DNA from: Nitrospiraceae bacterium
Lineage (GTDB): Bacteria > Nitrospirota > Nitrospiria > Nitrospirales > Nitrospiraceae
Direction of reading: 5' to 3'
Length of the DNA: 64,000 nucleotides
NCBI GenBank assembly: GCA_919902505.1
Contig: CAKKRE010000028.1
Span: 10,530 to 74,529, forward strand
Positions 13,053 to 47,335 of the stretch are shown here, in pieces; within the stretch, counting starts at the first letter, position 1; every line of letters starts with the position of its first letter. The position numbers and the translations under genes were made by a program. The notes below the pieces were generated by a model. It was not told the origin of the DNA. It saw nothing but the letters and a program-made list of their open reading frames with translations, and did no database searches.

Positions 13053-13067
13053 GTGCAATTTTTGCAG
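13053..13067. promoter_or_regulatory. Candidate enhancer-binding-protein site TGCA-N5-TGCA
   Basis: gTGCAattttTGCAg, about 120 bp upstream of the -24 element at 13175; same motif as 18637 and 18681. Confidence 0.55.
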
Positions 13068-13173
13068 CACGATATCCTGGATCTCCGCAGGATCAGTGCG
13101 ACGGCGATGCAATCGAGCCATCTTAACTGTCCAATTGCTTATAGATCCAATAGATTTCCTAACCTGGACAGTA

Positions 13174-13189
13174 AGGCATACGAGTTGCT
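13174..13189 (+). promoter_or_regulatory. Sigma-54 (-24/-12) promoter candidate
   Basis: AGGCATACGAGTTGCT: GG-N10-GC with GGCA and TTGCT; 65 bp upstream of the ORF at 13254. Confidence 0.65.
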
Positions 13190-13253
13190 TAGGTCAGCAG
13201 CGGAATAGTCGCATCCTTTAAATATGAGCGGATCGGAATAGGAATGTGAAGTT

Positions 13254-13442
13254 ATGGAACCGACGGATCATCCTTGTGAGCGGTGTGCTCGAACCGACGG
13301 GCGGCTCATTTTCGACCAGTGGAGCAAACTGCTGCTCTGCGAAAATTGCTTCGAGCGCATGAGGCGGCAGCAGGCATGGTCTCTTCTGCGTGAGGCTGAG
13401 ATGCCTGAGGGGACAAGCTGGGTCATCCCCAGGCATGAATGA
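13254..13442 (+). CDS. Small Cys4 zinc-finger protein (copy 1)
   Basis: CERC-x17-CENC; paralog immediately downstream. Confidence 0.65.
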   Translation: MEPTDHPCERCARTDGRLIFDQWSKLLLCENCFERMRRQQAWSLLREAEMPEGTSWVIPRHE

Positions 13443-13454
13443 ACTAAGGAGGGA

Positions 13455-13649
13455 ATGAAAGTGGAGGAGTCTTCTGTGATCTCGAAAGATCGACAATCCG
13501 CCGCGATCATGCATTGCGAGCGCTGTGCCAGGCGCTCTGTCCAACTATGCTTCGACGACACCAGCCGGCAAGAGAGCTGCTCCGAATGCCTGAATCGTTT
13601 GACCACGCGAAGAGGATTTATCACCAGGCCGGCGAAGCCAAGGCAGTAA
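13455..13649 (+). CDS. Small Cys4 zinc-finger protein (copy 2)
   Basis: CERC-x17-CSEC; AAGGAGG RBS before the ATG; shares CERCAR and LxFD with copy 1. Confidence 0.65.
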   Translation: MKVEESSVISKDRQSAAIMHCERCARRSVQLCFDDTSRQESCSECLNRLTTRRGFITRPAKPRQ

Positions 13650-13756
13650 GGATCCCCCATGGCTCGCTCCTCTCTCCTGCTCGCGACGGGGCTGTCCCTC
13701 ATCACGCCGGACCTGTGCGGCGCGATCCGGGACGGCGTGCTCCCTGAGAGACTCTT

Positions 13757-15436
13757 ATGCCCGGTCGCTATTTAGAACTGAAGCCGGTTCGCAGCACCCT
13801 GTGGGGGGAGGTTTCCCGGCTTGCGCTGGTGATCGGCCTCGAACAGCGCGTCCTCATGCTTATCGTCTCCTACGCCTTGGCCATCGCTCTCTTCTCCCTG
13901 GTCGTTCCCCTGACCGTGCAGGAACTCGTCAGCACCTTTGCCTTTTCGATCGAGCCGGTCATGATTGTCACCCTCACGCTGATCATTCTGATCGGACTCC
14001 TCTTCATCGGTTTCTTCCGGGTCTTTCAGACGAGCGCGACGGAAATACTCTTTCAGCGGCTCTACACCCGTATTGCTATCGCCATGACGGAGCACCTGCC
14101 CCGGGTACGGGAAGAAGTGTTCGTGCCCAGCTACGCGAACTACTTTGGAGAAGCGGAATTATTGCCGCGCGCCGTGGTGGTCGTGCTGGTGGACCTGATC
14201 AATGTTTTCATCTCAGGTGCTACGGGGCTGGTGATTCTCGTCGTCTATCATCCGTATTTCCTTGTGTACGACGCCTTCCTGCTCGGTGGATTTGCGCTGG
14301 TGCAATTCACCTCCGGGCAAGGAGGGGTTCGAGCGACGCAGACGGTCTCACAACACCATTACGATCTCATGACCTGGATGCAGGATATCGCGCAGAATCG
14401 CCTTCATTTCAAGGCCACCCAGAGCGCCCCGTTACTGCTGAATAAAACCGACCGCTTGTTGGAGTCTTACCTTACGGCGCGAAGGGCTCGCTCAGGGGTA
14501 CTGACCTGGCGCCAGTACATCAGCACGGTGATCTGGGAGGCGATTTGCCATAGCGGCATGATCGGCATGGGCGGATGGCTGCTGTCGATCGGGCAGATCA
14601 CGCTCGGTCAGTTCGTCGCGGCCGAAGTCATCGTCGGCACGCTCCTTCTGAACCTCGATACGGTGACGCGTCGAATCTATGCCGTGACCTATATCGTGAC
14701 GTCTTTCGATGAGCTGACGCGGGTCTTCTCTCTTCCGAAAGATGATCTGAGGGAGGAGGCGTCATTCTCGCGGTTGCCCGATCCCGCCATCCACGGTCTT
14801 CATGTGACCTGCAAAGATGCGGGCTTTGCCTATCCCAACTCCCCACCGATCATTGAGGGATTCAATTTGGAGGTGGCTTCCGGGGAAAAGGTGGCGGTCA
14901 TTTCTCAAACCAGCACGGGCAAATCCACCCTCGCTCTCTTGCTGGCCGGTCTCTCTCGCCCGACCACCGGGGTGGTTCGATTCAACGATGTGGATTTGCG
15001 CGATATGACCATGGACGATATCAATGCCGCTCGAGCGCTGGTTCTCGATTCGCATCTGACGTTGTTCGGAGGGACGCTGGAGGAAAATATCTCACTCGGA
15101 CGGCCGTCGGTCCGGTTCGAAGACCTCCGCTGGGCGCTGAGGTTCGCGGAATTAGATGAGGACGCCGATAGATTGCCGCAGGGCCTGGAAACTCCGACTC
15201 TGGCAGGGGGGAAGCTCTTCACGAAGAGTCAGATTCTTCGCATTCTGGTCGCCCGCGCGATCGTCACGAGGCCGCAATTGCTCATCTTCGACGGGACGCT
15301 CCATAACATGGCGCCGGATCTGAGGCAGATTCTGCTGCGGCGACTCTGTTCAAAAGAGGAAGCGTGGTCGGTGATCTTCGTCACCAATGACCCTTCCATC
15401 GGAGAATATGTCGATCGCCGTGTCATGCTGGGGTGA
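13757..15436 (+). CDS. ABC exporter-type half transporter (TMD+NBD) with degenerate ATPase motifs
   Basis: Multi-TM N-terminal half with GQITLGQFVAAE; Walker A SQTSTGKST, signature FTKSQ, Walker B LLIFDG. Confidence 0.85.
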   Translation: MPGRYLELKPVRSTLWGEVSRLALVIGLEQRVLMLIVSYALAIALFSLVVPLTVQELVSTFAFSIEPVMIVTLTLIILIGLLFIGFFRVFQTSATEILFQRLYTRIAIAMTEHLPRVREEVFVPSYANYFGEAELLPRAVVVVLVDLINVFISGATGLVILVVYHPYFLVYDAFLLGGFALVQFTSGQGGVRATQTVSQHHYDLMTWMQDIAQNRLHFKATQSAPLLLNKTDRLLESYLTARRARSGVLTWRQYISTVIWEAICHSGMIGMGGWLLSIGQITLGQFVAAEVIVGTLLLNLDTVTRRIYAVTYIVTSFDELTRVFSLPKDDLREEASFSRLPDPAIHGLHVTCKDAGFAYPNSPPIIEGFNLEVASGEKVAVISQTSTGKSTLALLLAGLSRPTTGVVRFNDVDLRDMTMDDINAARALVLDSHLTLFGGTLEENISLGRPSVRFEDLRWALRFAELDEDADRLPQGLETPTLAGGKLFTKSQILRILVARAIVTRPQLLIFDGTLHNMAPDLRQILLRRLCSKEEAWSVIFVTNDPSIGEYVDRRVMLG

Positions 15437-15545
15437 GTGTAGGCGGGCGTTGGATGTGTCCCGGCACACAGAGCGTTCGGCTATACAGCCTCAGTCCTGC
15501 GTGGTAGCATGAAACCCTGCTCGAATCTTCCTGTAGGACGCAGGT

Positions 15546-16943
15546 ATGTTTAGACCTATTTCTGAAGCCGCTCTCCTCCGAAGGGCTCCCTATCGGTTGA
15601 TCGCGGCGGTGCTGTTGATTTTGGCCTTGGTCGTTTCCGTCATCCTGCTCTTCAGTTTGGAACAGGAGAAACTTCTCCTTCAGGGCGTTATTCAAGGCAA
15701 GACGGCTCCGACGGAGTTGTTTCCAGCGCTCTGGCAGTCGCGCCGCGACTTGACGCTGGTGGCGCTCCTCGTTTTTCTGGTGAGTGCGATCGGGATCACC
15801 GCGGTCATCACGTTTCTGCACTATGACAGCACCATACGAACCCTCGAAGAAGTGAAGGGGCTGGCGCGCAACATCCTCGAGAGCATTCCAACCGGTGTCC
15901 TGACGCTGAACCGCAGCGGCATGATTACGGCCGTCAATCCCTCGGCTGAGGCCGTGTTGAAACGTGCGTCGCTCGACTTGCTGGGCCACTCGTACGAATC
16001 CGTCTTTACGGAGGGCGATACCATCCGCGGGGCGCTTGATGCAGCGCTGCGGATCCATCGGCACATGAGTCAGAAAGACTTGCCCTATGAAAGCCGCGAT
16101 CGAACCCTGCACACCATCCGCGTCAGTACGGCCGAGTTGACCGGAGACGATGGACGGCCCGCCGGCGTCATTCTCCAGGCACAGGACGTCACGGAATGGC
16201 TGGCTCTTGAACGGAGAGTCCGGGTTGCGGAAAAACTGGCGGCTCTTCACACGCTATCCGCCGGGGTGGCGCACGAGTTGCGCAATCCGTTGAGCGCGAT
16301 CGATTTGAATTTGCATCTCCTTGAGGAAGAATTCAACGAGCAGGGGGGGGCGGCGAAGCAGGCCGCTCATTACCTCCGCGTGTTGAATGCCGAATGCCGC
16401 CGCCTGTCGGTGATTCTCGATAACTTCATGAAGTTCGCGCGACCCGGCTCCCTGGGTCTCCATGCGGTGGATTTGCCCGCCTTGATCGAACACATCGTGG
16501 CGCTCATGCGGTTCGAAGCGGAGGAGCGTAAGATTCAACTTGAGCCACGGGTGAGCAAGGACATGTCCCCGGTGCTGGGTGATGAGACGCAAATCAGCCA
16601 GGTCTTGGTGAACATCGTCGTCAACGCGTTCCATGCCATGCCGAATGGTGGGCGGTGCTGTATCGCTACGGAAGAACGCCCGGGGGAAGGGAAGCGCTGG
16701 GTAGAGATTGTCGTGAGCGACACGGGTATCGGTATTGAACAGGAAGACCTGCCGCGACTGTTTGAGCCCTTCTATACGACCAAGTCGGGTGGAACCGGGC
16801 TCGGCCTCGCGATCGCCTACCGGATTATGCAGGATCATGGCGGGACCATTCATGTGACAAGTGTGCCTGGAAACGGGACCCAGGTGGTCATGCAATTTCC
16901 TGTTGCTGTCGATCATCAGCAGGCGGTTGCGGTGGGATTATGA
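15546..16943 (+). CDS. Sensor histidine kinase (2 TM, PAS, HisKA, HATPase)
   Basis: H-box AHELRNPL, N-box NIVVNAFHAM, DTGIG, FEPFYTTK, GTGLGL; PAS starting at NILESIPTGV. Confidence 0.95.
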   Translation: MFRPISEAALLRRAPYRLIAAVLLILALVVSVILLFSLEQEKLLLQGVIQGKTAPTELFPALWQSRRDLTLVALLVFLVSAIGITAVITFLHYDSTIRTLEEVKGLARNILESIPTGVLTLNRSGMITAVNPSAEAVLKRASLDLLGHSYESVFTEGDTIRGALDAALRIHRHMSQKDLPYESRDRTLHTIRVSTAELTGDDGRPAGVILQAQDVTEWLALERRVRVAEKLAALHTLSAGVAHELRNPLSAIDLNLHLLEEEFNEQGGAAKQAAHYLRVLNAECRRLSVILDNFMKFARPGSLGLHAVDLPALIEHIVALMRFEAEERKIQLEPRVSKDMSPVLGDETQISQVLVNIVVNAFHAMPNGGRCCIATEERPGEGKRWVEIVVSDTGIGIEQEDLPRLFEPFYTTKSGGTGLGLAIAYRIMQDHGGTIHVTSVPGNGTQVVMQFPVAVDHQQAVAVGL

Positions 16944-18298
16944 CGCAAGGGGCGCATATTCTCGTCGTAGACGATGAGGTCAATATCCGGGGCGCGTTAG
17001 TGACGCTCCTTGAAAAGAAAGGCCACCATGTGCGCGGGGCAGGGACAGGAGAAGAAGCGCTGGAGGAGCTTGATGCCGCCGCGGCTGATCTGGTGATGAC
17101 CGACCTCAAGATGCCCGGGATCGGCGGAATGGAGTTCCTTCGTCGTCTGAAGGAGAAGTGGCCGGAGACGGAAGTCGTGGTCATGACGGCGTATGGATCG
17201 ATCGATACGGCAGTGGAGGCCATGCGATGCGGCGCGTACGACTATCTCACCAAACCCATCGATCGCGAGCGGTTTCCCATCGTGGTCGAGAAAGCGCTGG
17301 ATCGCCATGCGCTGGCGACGGAGAACAAACAGCTCAGGAGCCGCCTGGACACACGCACACGCTTCGATCAGATGGTCGGTGACAGCGAGCCGATGCGGCA
17401 CGTTTACAACATGGTTGAGATGGTGGCCGAGAGCGATGTCACGGTGTTACTGACGGGGGAAAGCGGTACCGGAAAGGAACTTGTCGCCCGGGCGATCCAT
17501 CATAGGAGTGCCCGGGCGAATGGACCGTTTGTCACGCTGAACTGCGGAGCGTTACCAGAGAACCTGTTTGAAAGTGAACTGTTCGGCTACGACAAAGGGG
17601 CGTTTACCGGAGCGATGACCACGAAGCTGGGGCGATTCGAACTCGCCCATGAGGGAACGCTGCTTCTGGATGAAGTCGGCGAACTATCGTTAAAATCGCA
17701 GGTGGATTTCCTTCGTGTCTTGGAGACGAAGGAATTCAGACGCCTGGGCGGAACCAAAGTGATCAAGGTTGATACCAGGATCATTGCCGCCACGAATCGC
17801 AATCTCGAAGCAGCCGTCAAGCAGGGTGACTTTCGCGAAGACCTCTACTATCGATTGAACGTCGTCCCGATCCACCTCCCGCCGCTGCGCGAGCGTGCGG
17901 AAGATATCCCGCTGCTCGTGAACCGGTTTCTGATCGCCTTCTCGACCCAGTATCGCCGCGAGCCAAAGGAGGTGTCACGCGACGCCATGCGGTTGCTCCG
18001 CCTCTATGCCTGGCCCGGGAATATTCGCCAGCTCCGAAATCTCATGGAGCGGCTGGTGGTGACCGTGAAGGATGCAACCATTCAATCGGAACACCTCCCC
18101 GGGGACATTCAGGCCAGCAAGGAGGATGCTCGCACGATGCTCGTGACGCTGGGGACGCCCCTGGAACAGATCGAACGGGATGTCATCCAACGGACATTGG
18201 CCGAAGTGACGAATCATCGAGAGAAAGCGGCCAAACTCCTCGGCATCAGCCTCCGTGCATTGCAGTATAAAATCAAGGAGTACGGCATCCGCGAATAA
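16940..18298 (+). CDS. Sigma-54-dependent response regulator (NtrC/AtoC family)
   Basis: REC domain (VVDDE, TDLKMP), GESGTGKE, ELFG..GAFTGA, C-terminal Fis-type HTH; 4-nt overlap with the kinase. Confidence 0.96.
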   Translation: MTQGAHILVVDDEVNIRGALVTLLEKKGHHVRGAGTGEEALEELDAAAADLVMTDLKMPGIGGMEFLRRLKEKWPETEVVVMTAYGSIDTAVEAMRCGAYDYLTKPIDRERFPIVVEKALDRHALATENKQLRSRLDTRTRFDQMVGDSEPMRHVYNMVEMVAESDVTVLLTGESGTGKELVARAIHHRSARANGPFVTLNCGALPENLFESELFGYDKGAFTGAMTTKLGRFELAHEGTLLLDEVGELSLKSQVDFLRVLETKEFRRLGGTKVIKVDTRIIAATNRNLEAAVKQGDFREDLYYRLNVVPIHLPPLRERAEDIPLLVNRFLIAFSTQYRREPKEVSRDAMRLLRLYAWPGNIRQLRNLMERLVVTVKDATIQSEHLPGDIQASKEDARTMLVTLGTPLEQIERDVIQRTLAEVTNHREKAAKLLGISLRALQYKIKEYGIRE

Positions 18299-18349
18299 CG
18301 TGTGCCTTGGCGCGACCATACAGCCAGAACCGAACGAGGTTCCATGCCG

Positions 18350-18545
18350 CTAGCCCGCATTATTCATGACGGTTCGTCACGAAATCGCTGAGGCGCGTCG
18401 CGAGACCGGCGCGCGGAGTCCGGAGGCCCCGACGCGTACTCGTGCAGTACGTGGAGGGTCCGATGGGCGAGCCCGCCGGCCGAAGGCTCGTCGCAGCAGC
18501 GGATCAGCGGTTGCAGTAGAAGCGCTCATGAATAATGCGGGCTAG
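18350..18545. mobile_element. MITE-like element with perfect 20-bp terminal inverted repeats
   Basis: ctagcccgcattattcatga (18350-18369) / tcatgaataatgcgggctag (18526-18545); CTAG at both ends; no transposase; inner hairpin cgtactcgtgcagtacg at 18435-18451. Confidence 0.8.
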
Positions 18546-18636
18546 ACGGTAGGCTCAGGCCGCCCACAGTGGGAGTCTGGACCGTGAAACGGCTCGCGCG
18601 CAGGATTGTCGGCCGGGTTTGATGTCACTTGTCCCT

Positions 18637-18695
18637 CTGCAAGAAATGCAGTCGTCGAATCGCTGAAAATCGGAATCTCGCTGCAGAATTTGCAG
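18637..18695. promoter_or_regulatory. Tandem palindromic enhancer sites CTGCA-N5-TGCAG
   Basis: ctgcaagaaatgcag (18637-18651) and ctgcagaatttgcag (18681-18695), 44 bp apart, about 110-155 bp upstream of the -24 element. Confidence 0.7.
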
Positions 18696-18790
18696 AGGCC
18701 TCTCCCCCACGTTTGTAGGAACACTCACGCCAATACTCTAAGTCCTCGATTTGTTGCGCATCGCGCGCATCGATCTCCTGACTTACTTTT

Positions 18791-18806
18791 TGGCATTCCC
18801 CCTGCA
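18791..18806 (+). promoter_or_regulatory. Sigma-54 (-24/-12) promoter
   Basis: TGGCATTCCCCCTGCA: GG-N10-GC; downstream of a sigma-54 activator gene and of the tandem palindromes. Confidence 0.7.
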
Positions 18807-18971: not shown

Positions 18972-19661
18972 ATGGAGTCAATGGGAAAGATGACGTTGGA
19001 ACGAGTAATCGATGTGGGCCCTGCCGGTTTTCATCCTCCATCGGCGATGGAACTGGGTGTCACACATCCTGATTCTGGATCCGGACTGCTCTATGGCCGC
19101 CATGCCCAGCAAGATGAGGTGATCGCAGAGTCCGCAAGGCAATTGTTCACCAGGAAGAATCCGACGATCTTCCCGGGGCCGTTGTACTTATGGGCCTGGC
19201 ATCCGGAATGGATCGCCAAGGGACACGCTCTGTTGAGGCTTGCCGCCGAGATCCCCGGAGTCATGATCATTCCGATGCCGGACTATCGACCTAAGTATCC
19301 AAAAATCGATCCAGAAGAGGTCATCAATCCGAATCATCCGAACCTGACGATTTGGGGAAACAAGATCGAGGTGGCTCTGTTCATCGGCATTCACTGTCAC
19401 TACGCCAACCTGGCGCTACGCATGGTGCGGGCGGGAACGAATTGCCTCACCGTGGCCTTCTGCCACGACATCCATGAAGACGCCATGCTCAGTGTGCAGG
19501 ATCTCGATGTGAAGCAGATGGATCACATCATTGATATTTTTCGAACGGTTCGGAAGGAACTCGGAATCGAGATGCCGAAAAACGGGCAGACCGTCCGTTT
19601 GACCGAGACGCAGATGCGCGCAAACCATGGGGTCGAGCGAGTGAATCCATGGCCAGCCTGA
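18972..19661 (+). CDS. CO_dh/ACDS-epsilon family protein, ForD/PorD-like subunit of five-subunit 2-oxoacid:ferredoxin oxidoreductase (copy 1)
   Basis: KNPTIFPGPL.LWAW, PDYRPKYPKI, INPNHPNLTI, GIHCH; paralog at 22185; family assignment is from recall, not a search. Confidence 0.7.
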   Translation: MESMGKMTLERVIDVGPAGFHPPSAMELGVTHPDSGSGLLYGRHAQQDEVIAESARQLFTRKNPTIFPGPLYLWAWHPEWIAKGHALLRLAAEIPGVMIIPMPDYRPKYPKIDPEEVINPNHPNLTIWGNKIEVALFIGIHCHYANLALRMVRAGTNCLTVAFCHDIHEDAMLSVQDLDVKQMDHIIDIFRTVRKELGIEMPKNGQTVRLTETQMRANHGVERVNPWPA

Positions 19662-19718
19662 TGGGGAGTGTCAGACTTAGGCGGAAAGGCAGCGAGCCAA
19701 CAGTGCAGGAATCCGAGC

Positions 19719-20009
19719 ATGCCGATGAACATTGAGAATCCTGAGAAACCACCCGCGCTTAGGCACTATGTACCAAGCGAGGAATGGATTGCGCGAATCA
19801 GTCGCCTGCAAGATACGCTGACCGTGTGCCCAGCGGATATTCCGGCACGGTGCGAATTAGCAACGCTCCTGGAAAAGCTGGAGCAACCGGAAGAGGCCTT
19901 GGTTCATTGGCAAGTCGTGCTTGCCTGCGATCCCAACAGTCTCAACGCGCGTGAAGGAGTGGCTCGCTGTCGTCTTCAGGCAGGCCGTCCGCTACAGTCC
20001 CGTACGTGA
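19719..20009 (+). CDS. Small TPR-like protein
   Basis: ARCELATLLEKLEQPEEALVHWQVVLACDPNSLNAREGVARC fits a TPR helix pair. Confidence 0.6.
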   Translation: MPMNIENPEKPPALRHYVPSEEWIARISRLQDTLTVCPADIPARCELATLLEKLEQPEEALVHWQVVLACDPNSLNAREGVARCRLQAGRPLQSRT

Positions 20010-20427
20010 GAGTGCGCATGCCTACTCTCTGGGGTTGTTTCGATCAAGTCGAAACAAGCCTTCCGGGGACTTGTTGGATCCTGCTCAGGTCTCTGTTGCT
20101 CGGGGCACGGCGATCCCATCCGGGCCTATCTCGGAGAGCAGGCCCTCATCGCGAGAGGACCGGAACGGGTAGAGCTTTCACGCGTGAAGGTGGGGGAATT
20201 TGTAGAAGTCACCTATCACCGGGGGCACGCTGGTTTTCATGGAGGCCGACACCATTGATGTCCGTCCCGACTAGGACGTTGCGCCCGAAGAAAGTGAGGA
20301 AGGCTAAGTTTGGGTTTGCGAGCGCCAAGACACATGGGAGGCCGGCACGATGAGACGACAAGGAAATCGAGGCCAACAGCGGTCTGGGGAACGCGACGTA
20401 CGCAGTCAAACAGGGAGACGTAAGCAT

Positions 20428-20706
20428 ATGGTGAAGGACAGGAACATCGTGGTTGTGCGGTATCCACGAGGTGCGACCGCTCTCATCTGGCTTGATCCGG
20501 CCAGTCGAGCGGTTGTAACCAGCCATGCCGGGTTGAGTGCTCTGCTTCACCAGGGAGTGAGGGACTGGGGCGGCCGCCTGGTATTTCCCGAAAGCGGCCA
20601 AGACTTCTTAAGGGCGGTTTATGATCGCCTCTTCATCAATGGCTGCGCCGTCCAATGGATGAGTGCGTCGGCTACCGTCGATGTTCAACGAAGTTACCGT
20701 GTCTAG
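20428..20706 (+). CDS. Hypothetical protein
   Basis: ATG after a GGGAG-like RBS; protein-like composition; in line with the operon. Confidence 0.55.
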   Translation: MVKDRNIVVVRYPRGATALIWLDPASRAVVTSHAGLSALLHQGVRDWGGRLVFPESGQDFLRAVYDRLFINGCAVQWMSASATVDVQRSYRV

Positions 20707-20722
20707 CGCGGATCAAGTCGAT

Positions 20723-22159
20723 ATGGCTCCCTTCACATCCTGGCTTCCTTCTCCTTCCACGCAAGACTTCGATCTGGTCGTCAAAGTTGCAGGATCGGGT
20801 GCGTCACCGCTCCATCAGGATTGGCTGCCTCTTGCGCATATCCTGATCGATCATGGATTGACGGTGATGGCCCAACATCAGCGTCTGAACGGCCACTCCG
20901 GCGACTTTGTGCTGCATCTTCGCATGGCCGTTCAACCATTCCATTCAATGGGACATGGATGCGACGTCCTCGTCCACGTGGGGGACCATGCGCCGGAATT
21001 TTGGCGCTTCGATCTCCAGCCAGGAAGCGTGCTTCTCTGGGAACCTCCAGTGGAACGACCGCTCTATCCCGTCGTTCCCGAGGGAGTGATTACGTACCCG
21101 CTGCCTCTTTCGGATCTCTCTGCCCCTTACGGCGAGGGGGTGTCCGGAAAGGGACTCGCCGCGCTGGGAGTTCTGTTGTGCTTGCTCGGATGCCCTCAGG
21201 AGACTCTTCATCGTGTCGCCCGGCTGTTGGCGGCGCCAAGATCGTTCGCCGCCGGAATTGAATTCGCCCACTATGAGATTGCGAAACGCGATGCGTATTG
21301 TCTTCCGCTTTCCGCAGACGACCGTGGCCAAGGTCGGATCCTGCTGGCACCGGAACAGGCGACGATGCTCGGGTTCGCCATCAGTTTCTGCGAATGCGGA
21401 ACGGGTTGTGATCGTGAGTTGCTCCAGTCACCGGCAGAGTGGATGCGCAGACACCTGGGGATTGCCGGGGGCATGGTATCGGTGCTGCAGAGCGAGAGGC
21501 ACCCCGATGTGCAAGTGTTTCGAGGACCTCAAGAAAAGGTGGTGGCCCTCTTGGGTGGGGATGACCGCGCGATAATGTCCTGCCTTGCCGGGTCGCGAAT
21601 CCTCGTGGCCGCCGACGTCATGGATGTCGTGAAGCTCTTGATTGAGGCCCACGATCTGATCCGAAAAGGACTGAGCGGGAGCGTCGTGGTCTTGGTCGAT
21701 GACGTCGTCGCCAGGCGCCATCAAAGCGTCGATCTCAGTGCCTTGATCGAGATGGTCCGGCCGAGAGGGGCTGATGTACGAGGTGCGATCATGACAGTTC
21801 AATCCGATTTGCCGGTTAGGCCGGCTGATCGGGACCAAGAGGCTGGGGCGGACGTGGGCTTTTTCTCCTGGGGGGCAGATCAAGGGGTAGTTCGAGACGC
21901 AGTGGGGCTCTGTCGACAATTTGGCCTCAACGTAGCTGGCTTGTATCCGAAAGTCGTTGTGCCGCTGCCGCAAGCGGAATTGGAGATGTTTGCCAGAACC
22001 GTCAAGCGCATGGTCCTGGTCGAATCGAGCCGGAGGCATGGGTATGCTGAGCGGATACGGGCGGCATGCTCGTTCCGGCCTACGGTACTCACATCGCTGC
22101 CCGGAAAGTCGCTCACACCGATGGATATTTTTCTTCGAGAAGGGTTGGGGGCCGTATGA
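20723..22159 (+). CDS. Degenerate KorA-type 2-oxoacid:ferredoxin oxidoreductase alpha(+gamma)-like protein
   Basis: Gamma-like N-terminus (LVVKVAGSG..GCDVLV) and PFOR-II C-terminus (ADVGFFSWGADQGVVRDAV..VVPLP..VLVE); YPITP, EDEIAA and TSGPG are absent. Confidence 0.7.
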   Translation: MAPFTSWLPSPSTQDFDLVVKVAGSGASPLHQDWLPLAHILIDHGLTVMAQHQRLNGHSGDFVLHLRMAVQPFHSMGHGCDVLVHVGDHAPEFWRFDLQPGSVLLWEPPVERPLYPVVPEGVITYPLPLSDLSAPYGEGVSGKGLAALGVLLCLLGCPQETLHRVARLLAAPRSFAAGIEFAHYEIAKRDAYCLPLSADDRGQGRILLAPEQATMLGFAISFCECGTGCDRELLQSPAEWMRRHLGIAGGMVSVLQSERHPDVQVFRGPQEKVVALLGGDDRAIMSCLAGSRILVAADVMDVVKLLIEAHDLIRKGLSGSVVVLVDDVVARRHQSVDLSALIEMVRPRGADVRGAIMTVQSDLPVRPADRDQEAGADVGFFSWGADQGVVRDAVGLCRQFGLNVAGLYPKVVVPLPQAELEMFARTVKRMVLVESSRRHGYAERIRAACSFRPTVLTSLPGKSLTPMDIFLREGLGAV

Positions 22160-22184: not shown

Positions 22185-22763
22185 ATGGAACCGTACGAGA
22201 TGACCATTGGACCTGAAGGGTATCTGCCTCCGTCTGTTTCCGAAAGGGGCGTCGTTGGTCCCTCGAAGGGGGAGGGGCTTGTCATGGGAAAACGGGTGCC
22301 GGAGCAGCAGGCGATCGATGAAGTGGCGCGCCGACTACTTGCGGCCAAGAACCCCACGATCTTCCCGGGTCCGTTGGTTCTTTGGGCCTGGAATGAACAG
22401 GCGATGCGCGAGTCCAAAGTGGTCAAAGCGTTGGCGGAAGCGGTTCCGGCGAAGCTTATCCCGATGGCCGATTACCGGCCGAAGTATCCGAAGATCGAGG
22501 CGGAGCGGGAGATCAATCCGAACCATCCGAATCTGACGATCTGGAAAAACAAGATCGATGTCTGCTTATTTGTGGGTGTACATTGTCATCAATCCAATAT
22601 TGCGCTGAAGATCATTCGTGGCGGCACGGACTGCTACACCATCGCGCTCTGCACCTTTAGCGGCGACGATGAGGCGCACATCACGATCAGGGACTTGACC
22701 GTTGATACCATTCAGCGCATTGTGGATTCAGTCCATCGGCAGAAAAATTCACGGTCCTCATAG
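22185..22763 (+). CDS. CO_dh-family ForD/PorD-like protein (copy 2)
   Basis: AAGGAG RBS at 22171; GPEGYLPPS, KNPTIFPGPLVLWAW, DYRPKYPKI, INPNHPNLTIW, GVHCH. Confidence 0.72.
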   Translation: MEPYEMTIGPEGYLPPSVSERGVVGPSKGEGLVMGKRVPEQQAIDEVARRLLAAKNPTIFPGPLVLWAWNEQAMRESKVVKALAEAVPAKLIPMADYRPKYPKIEAEREINPNHPNLTIWKNKIDVCLFVGVHCHQSNIALKIIRGGTDCYTIALCTFSGDDEAHITIRDLTVDTIQRIVDSVHRQKNSRSS

Positions 22764-22815
22764 GGACGCTGGAGGATTGTCTCTGATGGCTACCTTCGTC
22801 AAGAGAGGATATGTC

Positions 22816-23745
22816 ATGCGATATGTACTTGCCGCAATTGTCGGGGTGATGGTTGCAATGGGCTCATCCGCCTGGGCCTATGAGGAAATCACGGTTGCAG
22901 AGGGTGGGACCCTGAGGGGCATCGTAACGCTCGAAGGGACTGTCCCCAAGCCGAAAGGGTACAACCTCACGACCTTGCCGGACCAATTCTATTGCGGGCG
23001 CATTTCGGACGGACAAGGCTGGCGCATTTTGCAGCCGTTCCAGGTCGGACCGGCGAGCGAGTTTCGCGACGTCGTGGTCTATCTGGAAGGCATCGACAAG
23101 GGCAAACCCTTCCCTGAAGGGGGCGTGCCGCACATCGAAGCGAAAGACTGCCTGTTCGAACCGTTCACCACCATCGTGCGGGACGATCAATCGGTGACGG
23201 TGGTCAACATGGACCCCGTCATGCACGACATTCAAGCCTATGAAACGTCGCATTTGGGCGCGCGCGTGTTGTTCAACGTGCCGCTGCCGATGAATCCGCA
23301 GCATCCGCGCAACCTCAAGGATCGCAGCGATGCCGGGATGTATCACAAACACATGGCCGGCCCGCCGATGAAGCAATTGGTGAATCTCAGCAAGGGCCGG
23401 CGGATTTTCGTCATGCAATGCGGCTTCCACGCGTACATGGAGAGCTGGGGGGTGGCCGTCACCAACCCGTACTTTGCCAAGACGGACGAGCAGGGCCGGT
23501 TCACCCTGACCGATGTGCCGGCGGGTACCTATAAGCTGGTCGTCTGGCACCCCTATGTCCGTACCGCGACCGAACAGACCGTCACGATCGGCCCGAAAGG
23601 GACGGTGGAGGCCCATGTCGTGGTCCCGGCCCCGATCGGGCGGCTCTATGCCAACGAGGTGATGGAGCATCCGTACAATCGCTACAACGTGCTCGAAGAA
23701 ACAAAGCGAGAAATCGATCCGATGATCCACAAGCAGGAGCATTGA
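22816..23745 (+). CDS. Exported protein with cupredoxin-like and carboxypeptidase-regulatory-like domains
   Basis: Signal peptide; MHDIQ and CGFHAYM; C-terminal TDEQGRFTLTDVPAGTYKLVVWHPY. Confidence 0.75.
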   Translation: MRYVLAAIVGVMVAMGSSAWAYEEITVAEGGTLRGIVTLEGTVPKPKGYNLTTLPDQFYCGRISDGQGWRILQPFQVGPASEFRDVVVYLEGIDKGKPFPEGGVPHIEAKDCLFEPFTTIVRDDQSVTVVNMDPVMHDIQAYETSHLGARVLFNVPLPMNPQHPRNLKDRSDAGMYHKHMAGPPMKQLVNLSKGRRIFVMQCGFHAYMESWGVAVTNPYFAKTDEQGRFTLTDVPAGTYKLVVWHPYVRTATEQTVTIGPKGTVEAHVVVPAPIGRLYANEVMEHPYNRYNVLEETKREIDPMIHKQEH

Positions 23746-24371
23746 AGCGGGAGTGAGAGGGTGTGAAGCGCCTAATACTATCTCGTGGAGCAGGATTGCT
23801 GATAAGCGATGCGTGTGTGGTGTAGGCGAGGATCTCGAGAGAGGGAGCTTGTCAAAACCAGAAACTGCGAATCGCCAGATCGATGGGTTAGCCATTCTGC
23901 TGCATTGAGCTTCCTCCATGCCGTCATTACACTGACCTTTTCTCCAGCGTCTGCATGCGGCTGAATCTGACATCTGAAATGTTGCCGGAACTGGCCCATC
24001 TAACGGTCGGAATCCTCGCCTTGTATCATCCAATCGGTAGTCTCTTGCAGGCCTATACCGGCAAGGCGATTGTGCCACTGGTGCCGTCCCCTTTTCCGTC
24101 ATGAAAAGAGCATGAGGGGGCCGGTTCGATTGGAGCCGGCATGGTCCCACGGGGGAACCTGAGTTTGCATGAAATGGTTGCATGGGTTCTGCTCTATGTC
24201 CGTTGTGCACGGTCGCTTTTCGGATAGCAGTTGATGTGTCACACCGTATGTTTTAAGGTTCCTGGAGGCTGTCAAGATTCTCCGGTTCACATCTCGAAGA
24301 CCAGGGGGGAGTGATAGAATGCATTCTGTGTCTGGTTGTGGAGGGGCCTCCTTGAGGTTCTTGCTGCAACG

Positions 24372-26399
24372 ATGACCGTTCTACTCGTCGGCCTACTGGC
24401 GATCTACATAGCCGGCGTCATCCTTCCTCCATGTTTTCCTGGGAAAGCGAGGATTCAGAACCTCGTCGCACATGGGCTTGCGGCGGCGGCAGGTTTCGTC
24501 GGTATCGTCCTCGGTGTTGCGGGCCTCCTCTCAACGGCGCCTCTGACCCTCTCGCTTGCTTCCAACATTCCCCATCTCAGCTTCGCAATCCGTCTGGACC
24601 CGCTGGCGGCGTTCTTCGTGCTGACTATCTCGCTGGTGGGGCTGGCCGCGTCGATCTATGCGTCCGGCTACGTCGTCGAATTCTCGGGCCGAGTATCGGT
24701 GGGATTGTTGGGCTCCCTCCTCAACGGGTTTTTGCTCTCCATGACCCTGGTGGTCCTGGCCGACAACGGGTTCTTCTTCCTGATCCTCTGGGAAGTCATG
24801 TCCCTGTTGTCCTATGTGCTGGTTGTGACGGAGCATGAGAAGCCCGGCGTCCGGGAGGCGGGGTTGTTCTATCTCATCATGACGCACGTCGGTACCGCGT
24901 TCATCATCCTCACGTTTTTGATCTTTTTCCAGGAAACCGGCTCATTTTCCTTCGAGGCGTTTCGCCACCCCGACCAGCAGCTTCCTGAGGGATTGCGATC
25001 GATCGCGTTTTTCACGGCCTTGATCGGATTCGGCGCGAAGGCCGGCATCGTTCCACTGCACGTGTGGCTCCCCTATGCGCATCCCGCCGCCCCGTCCCAC
25101 ATCTCGGCCCTAATGTCGGGGGTCATGATCAAGACCGCCATCTACGGGTTGATCCGGATGTACTTCGATTTCATGGGCGGGGAATTCCCCTGGTGGTGGG
25201 GCTTCACGTTGTTGGTCGCCGGCACGGTGTCGGCGCTCCTGGGTGTCATGTACGCCTTGATGGAACATGACCTGAAGAGCCTGCTCGCCTTTCACAGTGT
25301 GGAAAACATCGGCATCATTCTGCTGGGGATCGGCGCAGGCATGATCTTCCACACCTATGGCTTGCATGAACTGGCGGCGCTCGGATTACTGGCGGGCCTG
25401 TACCATACCATCAACCACGCGGCGTTTAAGGCGTTGCTGTTTCTGGGCGCCGGGGCGCTGCAGTTCTCCACCCATACGAGACACATCGAGGAGTACGGCG
25501 GCTTGCTCCGGCGCATGCCCTGGACGGGCGCCTTTTTTCTGATCGGCGCCGTCTCCATCGCCGCGCTTCCGCCCACCAATGGGTTCGTCAGTGAGTGGCT
25601 GGTCTTTCAGAGTTTGTTTCTCAGCTTCCAGCTGCCCACTCTGTTTCTCAAGTTGATGTTGCCGATTGCCGCCGCGATGTTGGCGTTGACGGGCGCGCTG
25701 GCGCTGGCGTGTTTTGCGAAGGCGTTCGGGATGTCGTTTCTGGCGCAGCCGCGCAGCGTCCATGCCCGCCATGCGACGGAAGTCCCCTGGTCGATGCGGG
25801 TTGGGATGGGCTTCTTGGCAGGGCTCTGCATGGTGCTGGGGCTGGCGCCCATGCTGGTCGTTCCGTTGTTGGATCGGGTCACGACTCCATTGACCGGTGC
25901 GGCCATCAGTTCACAGGTGCTGGCGCTCGACGGCTGGGTGGTGGCGCCGGTGACGGTGGAGTTTTCGAGCATCTCGACGCCGGTGCTCGCCATGCTCCTG
26001 GTCGGGGCGGGAGCGTTGGGGCTGCTGATCGCCCGACTCTGCGGGAAGGGGCTGCGCGCGCGCTATTACAAGACCTGGGGTTGCGGGCTGAATCTGACGC
26101 CTCGCATGGAATACACCGCGACCGGCTTCGCGCAACCGGTCAAGCAGGTCTTTGAAACCATCTACCAGCCGACGGTGAAGCTGGAGCAGGAGTTTCTGGA
26201 GCAATCGAAGTACTTCATCAAGCATCAGCGGTTCGAGTCGCACATCGAGCCGGTCTTCGAGAAGTACCTCTACCGGCCGGTGGTGGCATGGCTGTTGGCG
26301 GCAGCCGACCGGCTGCGCATCATTCAGGCCGGCAGTCTCCATCTGTATCTCACCTACATTTTTGTGACGCTGGTGCTGTTGTTGTTATGGGCGGGGTAG
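24372..26399 (+). CDS. hyfB: Hydrogenase-4 component B-like antiporter subunit (Ehr complex)
   Basis: Many TM helices; WEVMS, KAGIVPLHVWLPYAHPAAP, ENIGII, GGLLRRMP; alternative start at 24336. Confidence 0.9.
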   Translation: MTVLLVGLLAIYIAGVILPPCFPGKARIQNLVAHGLAAAAGFVGIVLGVAGLLSTAPLTLSLASNIPHLSFAIRLDPLAAFFVLTISLVGLAASIYASGYVVEFSGRVSVGLLGSLLNGFLLSMTLVVLADNGFFFLILWEVMSLLSYVLVVTEHEKPGVREAGLFYLIMTHVGTAFIILTFLIFFQETGSFSFEAFRHPDQQLPEGLRSIAFFTALIGFGAKAGIVPLHVWLPYAHPAAPSHISALMSGVMIKTAIYGLIRMYFDFMGGEFPWWWGFTLLVAGTVSALLGVMYALMEHDLKSLLAFHSVENIGIILLGIGAGMIFHTYGLHELAALGLLAGLYHTINHAAFKALLFLGAGALQFSTHTRHIEEYGGLLRRMPWTGAFFLIGAVSIAALPPTNGFVSEWLVFQSLFLSFQLPTLFLKLMLPIAAAMLALTGALALACFAKAFGMSFLAQPRSVHARHATEVPWSMRVGMGFLAGLCMVLGLAPMLVVPLLDRVTTPLTGAAISSQVLALDGWVVAPVTVEFSSISTPVLAMLLVGAGALGLLIARLCGKGLRARYYKTWGCGLNLTPRMEYTATGFAQPVKQVFETIYQPTVKLEQEFLEQSKYFIKHQRFESHIEPVFEKYLYRPVVAWLLAAADRLRIIQAGSLHLYLTYIFVTLVLLLLWAG

Positions 26400-26463
26400 G
26401 GCGAGGCAGCGGGCTGTGCGTAGGGGTTGTGCCTGGTCGTTCGATCACTGAGTGACGGGAGCT

Positions 26464-27420
26464 ATGCAGTCGATCATCCACATCGTGCTGGTCGTCGTTC
26501 AGCTTGCGCTGTTGTTGACCCTCTCTCCGTTTGTCGTCGGCCTCATCCGAAAGGTCAAAGCACGTCTACAGTGCCGCCGCGGGGCGAGTCTCTTTCAGCC
26601 CTACGCCGATCTGGCCAAGTTGTTCCGGAAGCAGCCCGTCATCTCTTCGACGACCTCCTGGATTTTTACCGCGGCGCCATACATTGTCTTTGCCTCGACC
26701 GTTGCGGCGGGACTGCTGATACCGGTGTTCGTCTCTCACACCCCGCTCAATTTCGCGGGGAACATCATTGCGCTCGTCTATCTGCTGGCGTTGGGAACGT
26801 TCTTCCTGATCCTGGCGGGGCTCGATGCAGGATCGGCGTTCGGGGGGATGGGCAGCAGCCGCGAGGCGATCGTCGCGACGCTGGCCGAGCCGGCCATGAT
26901 GCTGTCCATCCTTTCTATCGCGCTGACCGCCGGCTCCACGAATTTGAGCACCATCGTGCATCAGTCCGCGTTGATGGAAGGGGTCGTCGTGGCTCCGCCC
27001 GCCCATTTGATGGCGCTGGCCGCCTTGTTCATCGTGACGCTGGCGGAAACCGGTCGTGTCCCGGTGGACAATCCCGCCACGCACCTGGAATTGACGATGA
27101 TCCACGAGGCCATGCTGCTCGAGTATTCCGGCCGCTACCTGGCGTTGATGGAGTGGGCGGCCGGCATCAAGTTGCTGGTGTTCCTGACCTTGATCGTGAA
27201 TGTCTTTGCGCCCTGGGGTATCGCCACGAGCCTGGCGCCGTCAGCCATCGCCGTCGGTCTTCTGGTGTATCTCGGGAAAGTGGCTGCGCTGGCTTTTGTG
27301 ATCGGCGTGATCGAATCGATGTTCGCGAAGCTGCGATTGTTCCGGGTGCCGGAAATGCTGGGCGCGGCGTTCATCCTGTCGCTGCTCGCGCTGGTCTTCT
27401 TCTATACGCTGAAAGGGTAA
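26464..27420 (+). CDS. hyfC: HyfC/NuoH-like membrane subunit
   Basis: RKVKARLQCRRG..QPYADLAKL, GSSRE, ETGRVPVD, EYSG. Confidence 0.9.
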   Translation: MQSIIHIVLVVVQLALLLTLSPFVVGLIRKVKARLQCRRGASLFQPYADLAKLFRKQPVISSTTSWIFTAAPYIVFASTVAAGLLIPVFVSHTPLNFAGNIIALVYLLALGTFFLILAGLDAGSAFGGMGSSREAIVATLAEPAMMLSILSIALTAGSTNLSTIVHQSALMEGVVVAPPAHLMALAALFIVTLAETGRVPVDNPATHLELTMIHEAMLLEYSGRYLALMEWAAGIKLLVFLTLIVNVFAPWGIATSLAPSAIAVGLLVYLGKVAALAFVIGVIESMFAKLRLFRVPEMLGAAFILSLLALVFFYTLKG

Positions 27421-27424
27421 CGCG

Positions 27425-28090
27425 GTGTCGGCTTCCACCCAATTGGGCTCACAACTCGTCGATCTCTGCTCGGTCCTGCTGCTGCTCTGTTGTTTTGCCA
27501 TCGTGGCGCAGCGTCGATTGTCGGCCTGTGTGGATCTCTTTGCGCTGCAGTCCGCGTTTCTGGCGGCGACCGCCGCGCTCGTCGCGTTTCTGACCGGACA
27601 TAAGCACATTTATTTCGCGGCGGCCCTGACGATCGTCATCAAAGTGATCGTGCTGCCACGCATTCTGCGGAAGGTCATCGAGCGTCTGAATGTCTCCCGT
27701 GAGCTGGGGATGAATATCAATATTCCGGCGGGCCTGCTGATCTGCGGCGCGCTGGTGATCGTCGCCTTCTTTATCACGCAGCCCATCATTCCGCTCGGCT
27801 ACCTGCTGACGCGCGATTCTCTGGCCATTGCGCTGGCCATTATTTTGATCGGATTTTTCACCATGATCGCCCGCCAGAAGGCGATCACGCAGATGGTCGG
27901 CTTCCTGGTCATGGAGAACGGAGTGTTCCTGGGAGCCACGGCGGCCGCGTACGGCATGCCGCTGATCGTTGAATTGGGCGTCTTCTTCGATGTGTTGGTG
28001 GCCGGGTTGATCGTCGGCATTTACACGCATCGGCTGCAGGATACGTTCGATAGCGTGGACACCAGCACGCTGACGGTGCTGAAGGAATGA
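27425..28090 (+). CDS. hyfE: HyfE-like membrane subunit
   Basis: GFLVMENG, PLIVELGVFFD; position in the operon. Confidence 0.88.
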   Translation: MSASTQLGSQLVDLCSVLLLLCCFAIVAQRRLSACVDLFALQSAFLAATAALVAFLTGHKHIYFAAALTIVIKVIVLPRILRKVIERLNVSRELGMNINIPAGLLICGALVIVAFFITQPIIPLGYLLTRDSLAIALAIILIGFFTMIARQKAITQMVGFLVMENGVFLGATAAAYGMPLIVELGVFFDVLVAGLIVGIYTHRLQDTFDSVDTSTLTVLKE

Positions 28091-31334: not shown

Positions 31335-31856
31335 ATGTTTCGAATCCTCAAAAAAAGTCTTCAGACCGGTGTCGTCACGGGGCAACATCCTGCCGGAGGC
31401 GCACCTTCGGAGCCGGTCAGCCAGGACGCCATCGAAAAGGCCAAGCCGTTCCGGCGCTCGATGACGATCCGTGAAGTCGATACGGGTTCCTGTAACGCCT
31501 GCGAGATGGAAATGAATGCGCTGGCCAATCCGGTCTACGACGTGGAGCGGTTCGGAGTCCATATTGCCGCATCGCCTCGCCATGCCGATGCCCTGGTCGT
31601 CACCGGGCCGGTGACCGTCAATATGGAACGAGCGCTGAAGGATGTGTACAAGGCAACGCCAGACCCCAAGATCGTCATCGCGGTGGGAGACTGTGCCGTG
31701 ACCTGCGGCATGTTCAAGGGAAGTTATGCGGTGACGGGTCCGGTGGATCGGCATATCCCCGTCGATGTGCGTATTCCTGGTTGCCCCCCGCGCCCGGCCG
31801 AAATCCTCGCGGTGCTAGCGAAGCTTCGCCAGGATGATCCTGACGCAGATACATGA
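31335..31856 (+). CDS. hyfI: HyfI/NuoB-like Fe-S small subunit
   Basis: TGSCNACE, SPRHADAL, GDCA, PGCPP; AAGGAGG RBS. Confidence 0.92.
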   Translation: MFRILKKSLQTGVVTGQHPAGGAPSEPVSQDAIEKAKPFRRSMTIREVDTGSCNACEMEMNALANPVYDVERFGVHIAASPRHADALVVTGPVTVNMERALKDVYKATPDPKIVIAVGDCAVTCGMFKGSYAVTGPVDRHIPVDVRIPGCPPRPAEILAVLAKLRQDDPDADT

Positions 31857-45738: not shown

Positions 45739-45754
45739 AGCAAGATGCGAGCCA
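45739..45754 (-). promoter_or_regulatory. Sigma-54 promoter candidate
   Basis: TGGCTCGCATCTTGCT on the minus strand, GG-N10-GC, about 85 bp upstream of the 45654 start. Confidence 0.6.
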
Positions 45755-47257: not shown

Positions 47258-47335
47258 GGTGCGCGACGGTAGCATAGAGATTTCACGGAACACAATGACT
47301 CGTCTTGTCGCGCCCGTCTCCGGTATACTGGCCGA

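Follow-up and report, generated by a model that had tools for sequence, protein, structure and literature searches.

A sensor kinase and activator gene pair lies between two predicted sigma-54 promoters

The 64,000-nt stretch analysed here (the window, in whose coordinates all positions are given) comes from contig CAKKRE010000028.1 of a Nitrospiraceae genome assembly (GCA_919902505.1) and carries adjoining genes for a sensor histidine kinase and an NtrC-family response regulator, with a predicted sigma-54 promoter and TGCA-N5-TGCA palindromes on either side of the pair. The first promoter, P1, precedes a group of small genes upstream of the kinase, and the second, P2, stands between the activator gene and a long operon that runs into genes for a complex-I-like assembly, the Ehr complex. 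The features on which the analysis turns are the following.

15546-16943, + strand: sensor histidine kinase with two membrane helices and a ~30-aa loop, then PAS, HisKA and HATPase domains
16940-18298, + strand: NtrC-family response regulator and sigma-54 activator with REC, AAA+ (including GAFTGA) and Fis-type helix-turn-helix (HTH) domains
13054-13066, no strand assigned: enhancer site of P1, TGCAATTTTTGCA; 121 bp from its first T to the GGCA of P1
18638-18650, no strand assigned: distal enhancer site of P2, TGCAAGAAATGCA; 154 bp to the GGCA of P2
18682-18694, no strand assigned: proximal enhancer site of P2, TGCAGAATTTGCA; 110 bp to the GGCA of P2
13174-13189, + strand: predicted sigma-54 promoter P1, AGGCATACGAGTTGCT; -24 GG at 13175-6, -12 GC at 13187-8
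18791-18806, + strand: predicted sigma-54 promoter P2, TGGCATTCCCCCTGCA; -24 GG at 18792-3, -12 GC at 18804-5

The three palindromes were found by sequence reading and exact search, and spacing was measured from the first T of a palindrome to the first G of GGCA. The P1 site lies where the original prediction had placed it, and the 44-bp separation of the two P2 sites also stands, whereas the P2 sites themselves, predicted at 18637 and 18681, each begin one base further on. Both -24/-12 elements proposed at 13174 and 18791 are present as GG-N10-GC, and the distance given as about 120 bp for the P1 site is 121 bp.

Five copies of TGCA-N5-TGCA occur in the window as compared to 0.95 expected. 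The three promoter-linked copies score 18.7-22.3 with the family matrix, the P1 site (13054) being the maximum of the window at 22.3; the remaining two (44447 and 50998), whose spacers are GC-rich, reach 10.0 at most, and a matrix scan of the whole 64 kb revealed no further site above 10. The composite arrangement, a site 95-140 bp 5' of GGCA-N7-TGC, was observed twice, against 0.013 expected per 64 kb under a second-order Markov model. P1 and P2 each match 9 of 12 consensus positions (a TGGCAC-N5-TTGCW-like context). Scans of the two control regions detected no gene-strand sigma-70-like promoter and no intergenic terminator-like site, and an Rfam search of the whole window returned one tRNA only, with no RNA element in the leader of P1 or P2.

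The top sigma-54 consensus match of the window lies elsewhere: TGGCTCGCATCTTGCT, at 45739-45754 on the minus strand, agrees at 11 of 12 positions and stands 18 nt before the ATG of a 153-aa open reading frame (45720-45259), downstream of the der GTPase gene. An enhancer-like palindrome was not observed near it. The gene at 45881-47293 was considered as a possible further activator gene with a promoter of its own at 45754 and rejected; it encodes the Der GTPase.

Palindrome and promoter recur at the same places in 80 loci

A search with one genome per species yielded 80 orthologous loci, all from Nitrospira or Nitrospiraceae. These loci were picked via the activator gene, and the DNA scanned comprised the 64-kb window and, on each side of every orthologous locus, a flank of up to 8 kb, 1.13 Mb altogether. 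The activator orthologues of the 80 genomes are 77-97% identical to the protein encoded in the window; the closest is that of Candidatus Nitrospira defluvii, and this identity of 97% assigns the window to Nitrospira. The window sequence itself occurs in groundwater metagenomes.

TGCA-N5-TGCA was found 225 times in the 1.13 Mb, as compared to ~17 sites expected from the chance rate of the window, and nearly all of these sites are promoter-associated and adjoin the kinase/activator pair. A site lies 60-260 bp upstream of 143 promoter-like elements, 133 of which are on the gene strand. In nearly every locus, one to three sites follow the activator gene and are themselves followed by GGCA-N7-TGC(A), the P2-type form being GGCAt..tcccTGCA; loci that lack an exact site carry a one-mismatch site at the expected position. 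Upstream of the pair, zinc-ribbon genes, where present, are preceded by a palindrome and a sigma-54 promoter. The orthologues of P1 keep the sequence GGCAT(A/G)CGAGTTGC, with a homologous site 109-123 bp upstream in ~25 loci, and in N. defluvii (L001) both site and spacing are identical to those of P1. In many relatives a further promoter of this kind, the third, stands before zf2, the second zinc-ribbon gene (GGCACCGGCGTTGCT; spacing 131-134 bp).

Aligned across loci, the palindrome is longer than first described, with the consensus cTGCAA-N3-TTGCAg and an A/T-rich centre. The original prediction had proposed shared enhancers with sigma-54 promoters to either side of the activator gene and had named conservation in orthologous intergenic regions as a check; motif and promoter indeed recur at the same places, and the palindrome and GGCA-N7-TGC are kept across the 80 loci. 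These data indicate that the TGCA-N5-TGCA sites are real, conserved activator-binding sites, the binding itself being predicted.

Enhancer sites are helically phased with the promoters

The spacing had been described as typical for enhancer-binding proteins, and the comparison bears this out: enhancer sites are dyads ~80-150 bp or more 5' of the -24 element and often paired, and those of the window lie at 121 bp (P1) and, as a pair, at 110 and 154 bp (P2); site positions in the orthologues cluster at ~120, ~163 and ~222 bp from the promoter, a third cluster thus standing near -222. The spacing of the proximal site falls into three classes, 109-112 bp (25 cases), 118-123 bp (78 cases) and 131-134 bp (17 cases), which differ by about one helical turn. 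In orthologues of P2 the proximal spacing is mostly 118-123 bp, as compared to 110 bp in the window; as compared to the window, the interval has 10 additional bases following position 18709 in a close strain and 11 additional bases in L002, which gives ~121 bp, one helical turn more. Second sites stand 41-44 bp further from the promoter than the proximal site in 43 cases; in 11 cases this distance is 100-102 bp. On this evolutionary evidence, the position of the site relative to the promoter appears to depend on the face of the helix.

Between site and promoter, a further element is found at each control region.

18739-18751, - strand: IHF-like element midway between the enhancer sites and P2, AATCGAGGACTTA; one mismatch to WATCAANNNNTTR
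13140-13159, no strand assigned: central element between the enhancer site and P1, TATAGATCCAATAGATTTCC; candidate site for a DNA-bending protein

The one-mismatch IHF-like sequence at 18739-18751, already noted in the original prediction, is present as described. The conserved block here, (G)TAAGTCCTCGATTT, keeps a constant distance of ~54 nt from the proximal enhancer site. At this offset, 16 of 73 orthologous promoters have one mismatch or less to the IHF consensus as compared to 2.7 expected from shuffles, a six-fold excess; most orthologues deviate from WATCAANNNNTTR by 2-3 positions. The central element of P1 is weaker than that of P2 and matches the IHF consensus poorly, and zf1-type promoters elsewhere have a similar block (...AAATCC/AGATCC...AT-rich) at the equivalent place, zf1- and zf2-type promoters each having their own conserved central block. 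The layout predicted from these elements is the standard one, in which a bend lies between the activator site and the sigma-54 promoter.

A miniature inverted-repeat element of ~198 bp (18349-18546) separates the stop codon of the activator gene from the P2 enhancer; its terminal inverted repeats (GCTAGCCCGCATTATTCATGA) are 21 nt long. Several runs show it at 20-50 times the depth of the adjoining sequence and linked to a variety of flanks. One related strain is without it (18350 joined to 18551), and the enhancer sites are intact despite its presence in the window.

The adjacent activator is the likely ligand of the palindromes

The protein encoded at 16940-18298 has the Pfam domains Response_reg (1e-30), Sigma54_activat (1e-71), AAA_lid_14 and HTH_8, together with the motifs VMTDLKMP, GESGTGKE and GAFTGA, and its top solved relative is an NtrC-family regulator (4l4u, E = 6e-116). 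It is the product of the sole sigma-54 activator gene in the window. The kinase gene overlaps the start of the activator gene by 4 nt, and the two are adjacent in all 57 of 57 loci. The HTH of the activator, NHRExAAxLLGISLRxLQYKIKEY, is nearly invariant among 78 orthologues.

We also scanned metagenomes with the pattern CTGCAA-N3-TTGCAG-N(95-120)-GGCA-N7-TGC. Among the 120 matches listed, most look like chance occurrences in unrelated organisms, and the scan thus does not delimit a regulon; on ~15 of the contigs listed there is also a gene for an NtrC-type activator (33-57% identical), in most cases immediately next to the match. The activators beside the motif share the recognition helix LGIS.R.L.YK with the activator of the window, and their neighbours encode GltS-like and ClC-like transporters, a binding protein and, in L142, a zinc-ribbon protein. 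Since these distant activators share motif and recognition helix and have different targets, the motif would represent a widespread NtrC-type specificity class. Together, co-location and the conserved recognition helix argue strongly that the adjacent activator binds the palindromes. In L122, L139 and L185, distant NtrC-type activators are accompanied by two abutting copies of the palindrome (e.g. CTGCAAAAATTGCAGtaaCTGCAAAATCTGCAG), which precede the sigma-54 promoters of GltS-like glutamate/sodium symporter genes.

P1 precedes zinc-ribbon genes and a degenerate ABC-like gene

Three genes lie between P1 and the kinase.

13254-13442, + strand: zf1, a 62-aa zinc-ribbon-type protein (CxxC...CxxC), the first gene after P1
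13455-13649, + strand: zf2, a 64-aa Cys-rich zinc-ribbon-type protein
13757-15436, + strand: ABC-exporter-like protein with a membrane domain and a nucleotide-binding domain (Pfam ABC_tran)

No Pfam family matches zf1 at cut-off, and the gene is present in 20 of the 57 loci with enough upstream DNA. The ABC-like protein has sub-threshold NCBIfam matches only. Its ATPase motifs are degenerate yet strongly conserved among 19 orthologues, with a P-loop without glycines, a Walker B motif (FDG) without the catalytic Glu, and ND in place of the H-loop His, which suggests that the protein may be a non-hydrolysing partner of the short-loop kinase rather than a transporter. P1 probably serves zf1, zf2, the ABC-like gene and the kinase and activator genes themselves.

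P2 precedes a conserved operon that runs into the Ehr complex

Gene content downstream of P2 was counted in the 53 loci with at least 5 kb of downstream sequence.

18972-19661, + strand: CdhB-like protein 1 (Pfam CO_dh), first after P2 in the window strain; 21/53 loci
19668-20009, + strand: small TPR protein, encoded by the first of the conserved operon genes and invariably present; 53/53 loci
20350-20706, + strand: 118-aa protein; 28/53 loci
20663-22159, + strand: 498-aa protein with a C-terminal region like 2-oxoacid oxidoreductase alpha domain II (PFOR-II-like); 21/53 loci
22185-22763, + strand: CdhB-like protein 2 (Pfam CO_dh); 18/53 loci
22786-23745, + strand: exported protein with a CarboxypepD_reg domain and an invariant H...C-x2-H-x2-M; 41/53 loci
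24336-26399, + strand: NuoL-like (hyfB-like) subunit; follows the activator locus in 48/53
26452-27420, + strand: NuoH-like subunit (Pfam NADHdh)
27425-28090, + strand: HyfE-like subunit
28128-29660, + strand: NuoM/N-like subunit (Pfam Proton_antipo_M, a domain found twice in the complex)
29665-31257, + strand: NuoCD-like large subunit, HyfG-like (Complex1_30kDa and Complex1_49kDa)
31335-31856, + strand: NuoB-like subunit (Oxidored_q6)

The genes behind P2 had been called an orphan unit of oxidoreductase subunits, a description that does not hold: as judged from gene order, these genes form the 5' end of a longer, conserved operon, which continues into the genes of a hyfBCEFGI-like Ehr complex, and the supposed orphan is its optional front (the NuoL-like gene follows in 48 of 53 loci). 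NuoL/M/N-, NuoH-, NuoCD- and NuoB-like subunits are encoded in hyfBCEFGI order, and scans from P2 to 31856 detected no intergenic terminator-like and no sigma-70-like site. The NuoCD-like subunit has the N-terminal sequence RVSGDTSVGH and the C-terminus NKSFNLSYAGNDL, with no cysteines at either of the two NiFe CxxC ligand pairs, and the NuoB-like subunit keeps the four cysteines for an iron-sulfur cluster. The missing NiFe cysteines thus mark the complex as Ehr-type and not a hydrogenase, in agreement with their reported loss from the Nitrospira Ehr large subunit (PMC12342949, PMC12542776).

The CdhB-like and PFOR-II-like genes are optional, being found in only 18-21 of the 53 loci and missing from N. 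defluvii (L001), and they include no catalytic subunit of carbon monoxide dehydrogenase (CODH). The two CdhB-like proteins and the 498-aa protein are probably what has been reported as a CODH adjacent to the hyf-like operon of Ca. N. nitrosa; the annotation 'CO dehydrogenase next to hyf' would then need correcting to two CdhB-like accessory proteins controlled from the same promoter. In the exported protein, the motif (DPVMHD, MQCGxHAYMESWG) is invariant in 41 orthologues and corresponds to a predicted type-1 copper (cupredoxin) ligand set. In many relatives the gene for this protein stops ~20 bp before the hyfB-like gene, and in the window the corresponding gap of 590 bp holds the 3' remnant (23892-24104) of a GPR1/FUN34/YaaH-family gene (acetate/succinate transporter type), which is intact between the same neighbours in L002 (15368-16006; Pfam PF01184). 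Two listed open reading frames, at 20006-20353 and 26427-27593, look non-coding (Arg/Gly-rich); the latter overlaps the NuoH-like gene in another frame.

Roughly half of all Nitrospirales genomes encode Ehr ('hyf-like'), which recent papers describe as a complex of unknown function that is not induced by H2 (PMC12342949, PMC12542776, PMC5596200). In a literature search of partial coverage, we found no paper linking this two-component system or its motif to the Ehr operon. With the arrangement described here, Ehr gains a defined candidate control circuit, in which a sensor kinase and a sigma-54 activator would act through a 15-bp palindrome on up to three promoters; when and why Ehr is made becomes a testable question, and the circuit provides a practical way to study how this enigmatic complex of respiratory type is regulated in a key group of nitrifiers.

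RNA contigs fit the predicted promoters

Transcript data were assembled metatranscriptome contigs only, whose ends mark start sites no more than approximately. Run X25, from activated sludge, has no RNA contig over 12722-13222 or 18550-18841, and contigs begin at ~13223 and 18842, 23-25 nt past the starts predicted for P1 and P2 at ~12 nt downstream of the -12 GC. These contigs fit promoters at P1 and P2. The deepest RNA contigs of the locus are those over zf1 and zf2. Compost runs of doubtful RNA origin (X21-X23) span the intergenic DNA and may contain DNA, and the N. moscoviensis RNA runs gave almost no coverage. In the N. moscoviensis locus (L070), an open reading frame for a small membrane protein (ATG at 9666) lies directly 3' of the downstream promoter, under a contig of depth 25, with the genes beyond it near zero.

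A two-component enhancer system that would drive the P1 unit and the Ehr operon

Together, these observations make it likely that the locus is a classical NtrC-type two-component enhancer system of Nitrospira that drives the P1 unit and the Ehr operon. The binding protein, the dependence on sigma-54, the start sites, the transcript extents and the signal are predicted, whereas the sequence elements, their conservation and phasing and the gene content are observed directly. In this model, the membrane kinase (15546-16943), with its short outer loop and cytoplasmic PAS domain, would phosphorylate the response regulator (16940-18298), whose Fis-type HTH dimers would bind cTGCAA-N3-TTGCAg at one site at P1 and two at P2. 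The bound dimers would nucleate the AAA+ ring; DNA bending at the conserved IHF-like element would then place this ring in contact with the sigma-54 RNA polymerase on the -24/-12 element, and ATP hydrolysis would open the promoter. P1 would then transcribe the two zinc-ribbon genes, with read-through to the ABC-like, kinase and activator genes and hence positive feedback, and P2 would transcribe the long operon, comprising the optional CdhB-like genes, the TPR gene, the gene for the exported protein with its cupredoxin-like motif and the hyfBCEFGI-like Ehr genes. The mechanism is textbook NtrC-type and holds nothing new on sigma-54 enhancers; its one illustrative feature is the natural spacing series in one-helical-turn steps.

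Several observations weigh against this model. A consensus score of 9/12 is common among coding-region sites, so that the scores of P1 and P2 are unremarkable by themselves; since the count fails to separate them from coding noise, the promoter call rests on position and conservation. The depth-25 contig of N. moscoviensis (L070 9632-9804) starts ~20 nt upstream of the predicted start, for which an imprecise contig end, another start site or antisense RNA are possible causes. The 590-bp gap between the exported-protein and hyfB-like genes could hide an internal promoter, as could gaps of 107-109 bp between zf2 and the ABC-like gene and between the latter and the kinase gene. Many loci, including that of N. 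moscoviensis, have neither site nor promoter directly 5' of the kinase gene, so that autoregulation would at most be a feature of certain lineages, and kinase and activator must also have a basal promoter. Finally, since the loci were anchored on the activator gene, the motif may also occur elsewhere in the genomes or be used by a paralogue.

The gaps after zf2 and the ABC-like gene and the loci with no element before the kinase gene also speak for a model in which P1 serves zf1 and zf2 only and the ABC-like, kinase and activator genes are expressed from a weak constitutive promoter of their own, with no autoregulatory loop. Two-component systems need basal expression, and contig depth in runs X25 and X27 is ~10-21 over zf1 and zf2 as compared to ~2-4 over the three genes that follow; contig depth, however, is a poor measure of expression. 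Scans of the zf2-ABC and ABC-kinase gaps detected no gene-strand sigma-70-like promoter and no intergenic terminator-like site, and in L051, L052 and L065 an enhancer site and a sigma-54 promoter stand directly 5' of the kinase gene. We regard the absence of a loop as possible but somewhat doubtful.

A similar standing, that of a tentative alternative which may well prove wrong, belongs to the view that the regulon is not local and that the activator also controls sigma-54 promoters elsewhere in the genome. The scan reached over the 64-kb window and the flanks of up to 8 kb at the orthologous loci, and some loci have extra motif-promoter pairs, among them divergent ones before paralogues of the exported protein (L053, L075 and L076). 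Set against this, no other site in the window scores above 10, and nearly all of the 225 sites are linked to a promoter beside the kinase/activator pair.

It is very unlikely that the palindrome is bound by some other protein, be it a repressor or a paralogous sigma-54 activator whose gene lies at another place, and that its adjacency to the activator gene is incidental. The specificity is not unique, the motif class being common to distantly related activators with other targets; there are several sigma-54 activators per Nitrospira genome (PMC6606698, PMC12542776); and the assignment of activator to site is predicted. Yet motif, promoter and kinase/activator pair stay together in 80 genomes (77-97% identity) while neighbouring genes vary, the recognition helix is conserved along with the motif, distant systems included, and the position at -110 to -134, the helical phasing and the paired sites are traits of activator sites and not of an operator. 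Chance coincidence of motif and promoter has a negligible probability: each promoter taken alone matches at only 9 of 12 positions and TGCA-N5-TGCA is short, but two composites against 0.013 expected, recurrence in 80 genomes and quantised spacing refute it.

Going beyond the NtrC-type model, one may speculate by analogy, with low odds of being right, that the two-component system is a dedicated Ehr switch whose kinase, with its minimal outer loop, senses through the degenerate ABC-like and zinc-ribbon proteins, the synthesis of which it would itself induce, in a manner like that of Bce-type transporter-kinase pairs. Ehr, with the exported protein and, in some strains, the CdhB- and PFOR-II-like proteins, might then serve in low-potential (ferredoxin-linked) electron transfer to supply the reductive tricarboxylic acid cycle under a particular redox or oxygen condition.

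Relation to known enhancer systems

The likeness to AtoC/NtrC-type sites that had been proposed holds in part: a TGCA-spacer-TGCA design is shared with AtoC, whereas the spacer is N5 and not N6, the protein falls below the AtoC cut-off and the palindrome is longer. AtoS and AtoC of the E. coli AtoS/AtoC-atoDAEB system are the top NCBIfam profiles for the Nitrospira kinase and activator, respectively; both remain short of equivalog status, the activator with 492 bits as compared to a cut-off of 714 (NF008469) and the kinase with 305 as compared to 646 for AtoS. The AtoC sites GCTATGCAGAAATTTGCACA and GCTATGCAGAAAATTGCGCA consist of TGCA, an AT-rich spacer and TGCA (PMC3118216), and the first of these cores differs from the window site at 18682 (TGCAGAATTTGCA) by one base of spacer. 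In the AtoC case, two abutting inverted 20-mers containing TGCA-N6-TGCA span 40 bp, whereas the Nitrospira sites are TGCA-N5-TGCA, lie 44 bp apart and serve unrelated targets.

With the enterobacterial NtrB/NtrC-glnAp2 system, the locus shares a kinase paired with a REC-AAA+-HTH activator, paired TGCA dyads more than 100 bp 5' of a -24/-12 promoter, and an activator gene in or beside a unit under its own control. In the NtrC site, TGCACC-N5-GGTGCA, the TGCA cores lie 13 bp apart as compared to 9 bp in Nitrospira. Unlike NtrB/NtrC, the Nitrospira system has a membrane-bound kinase with a PAS domain and targets outside nitrogen assimilation, and its activator is below the NtrC model cut-offs.

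FhlA and HyfR, which act on hyc and hyf in E. coli, offer a parallel in the target: sigma-54 control of a complex-I-like assembly of the group-4-hydrogenase type, encoded in the order hyfB-C-E-F-G-I. The Nitrospira complex has been termed 'hyf-like' and linked to FhlA (PMC5596200). FhlA is a formate sensor with a GAF domain, whereas the Nitrospira activator is a response regulator, predicted to be controlled by phosphorylation; moreover, in contrast to hyc and hyf, the Nitrospira large subunit is without NiFe cysteines and the P2 operon contains no formate dehydrogenase gene.

In Desulfovibrio vulgaris, activator genes are likewise co-located with sigma-54 promoters, and motifs were derived from orthologous upstream regions (PMC4641369); that survey covers organisms other than Nitrospira, and no text on a TGCA-type motif was found in it. 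LuxO of Vibrio is a close structural relative of the activator (5ep0, E = 8e-100) and also recognises a 13-bp palindrome of TGCA cores. The LuxO site is TTGCA-N3-TGCAA, so that its cores are 7 bp apart as compared to 9 bp in Nitrospira, and LuxO controls small RNA genes.

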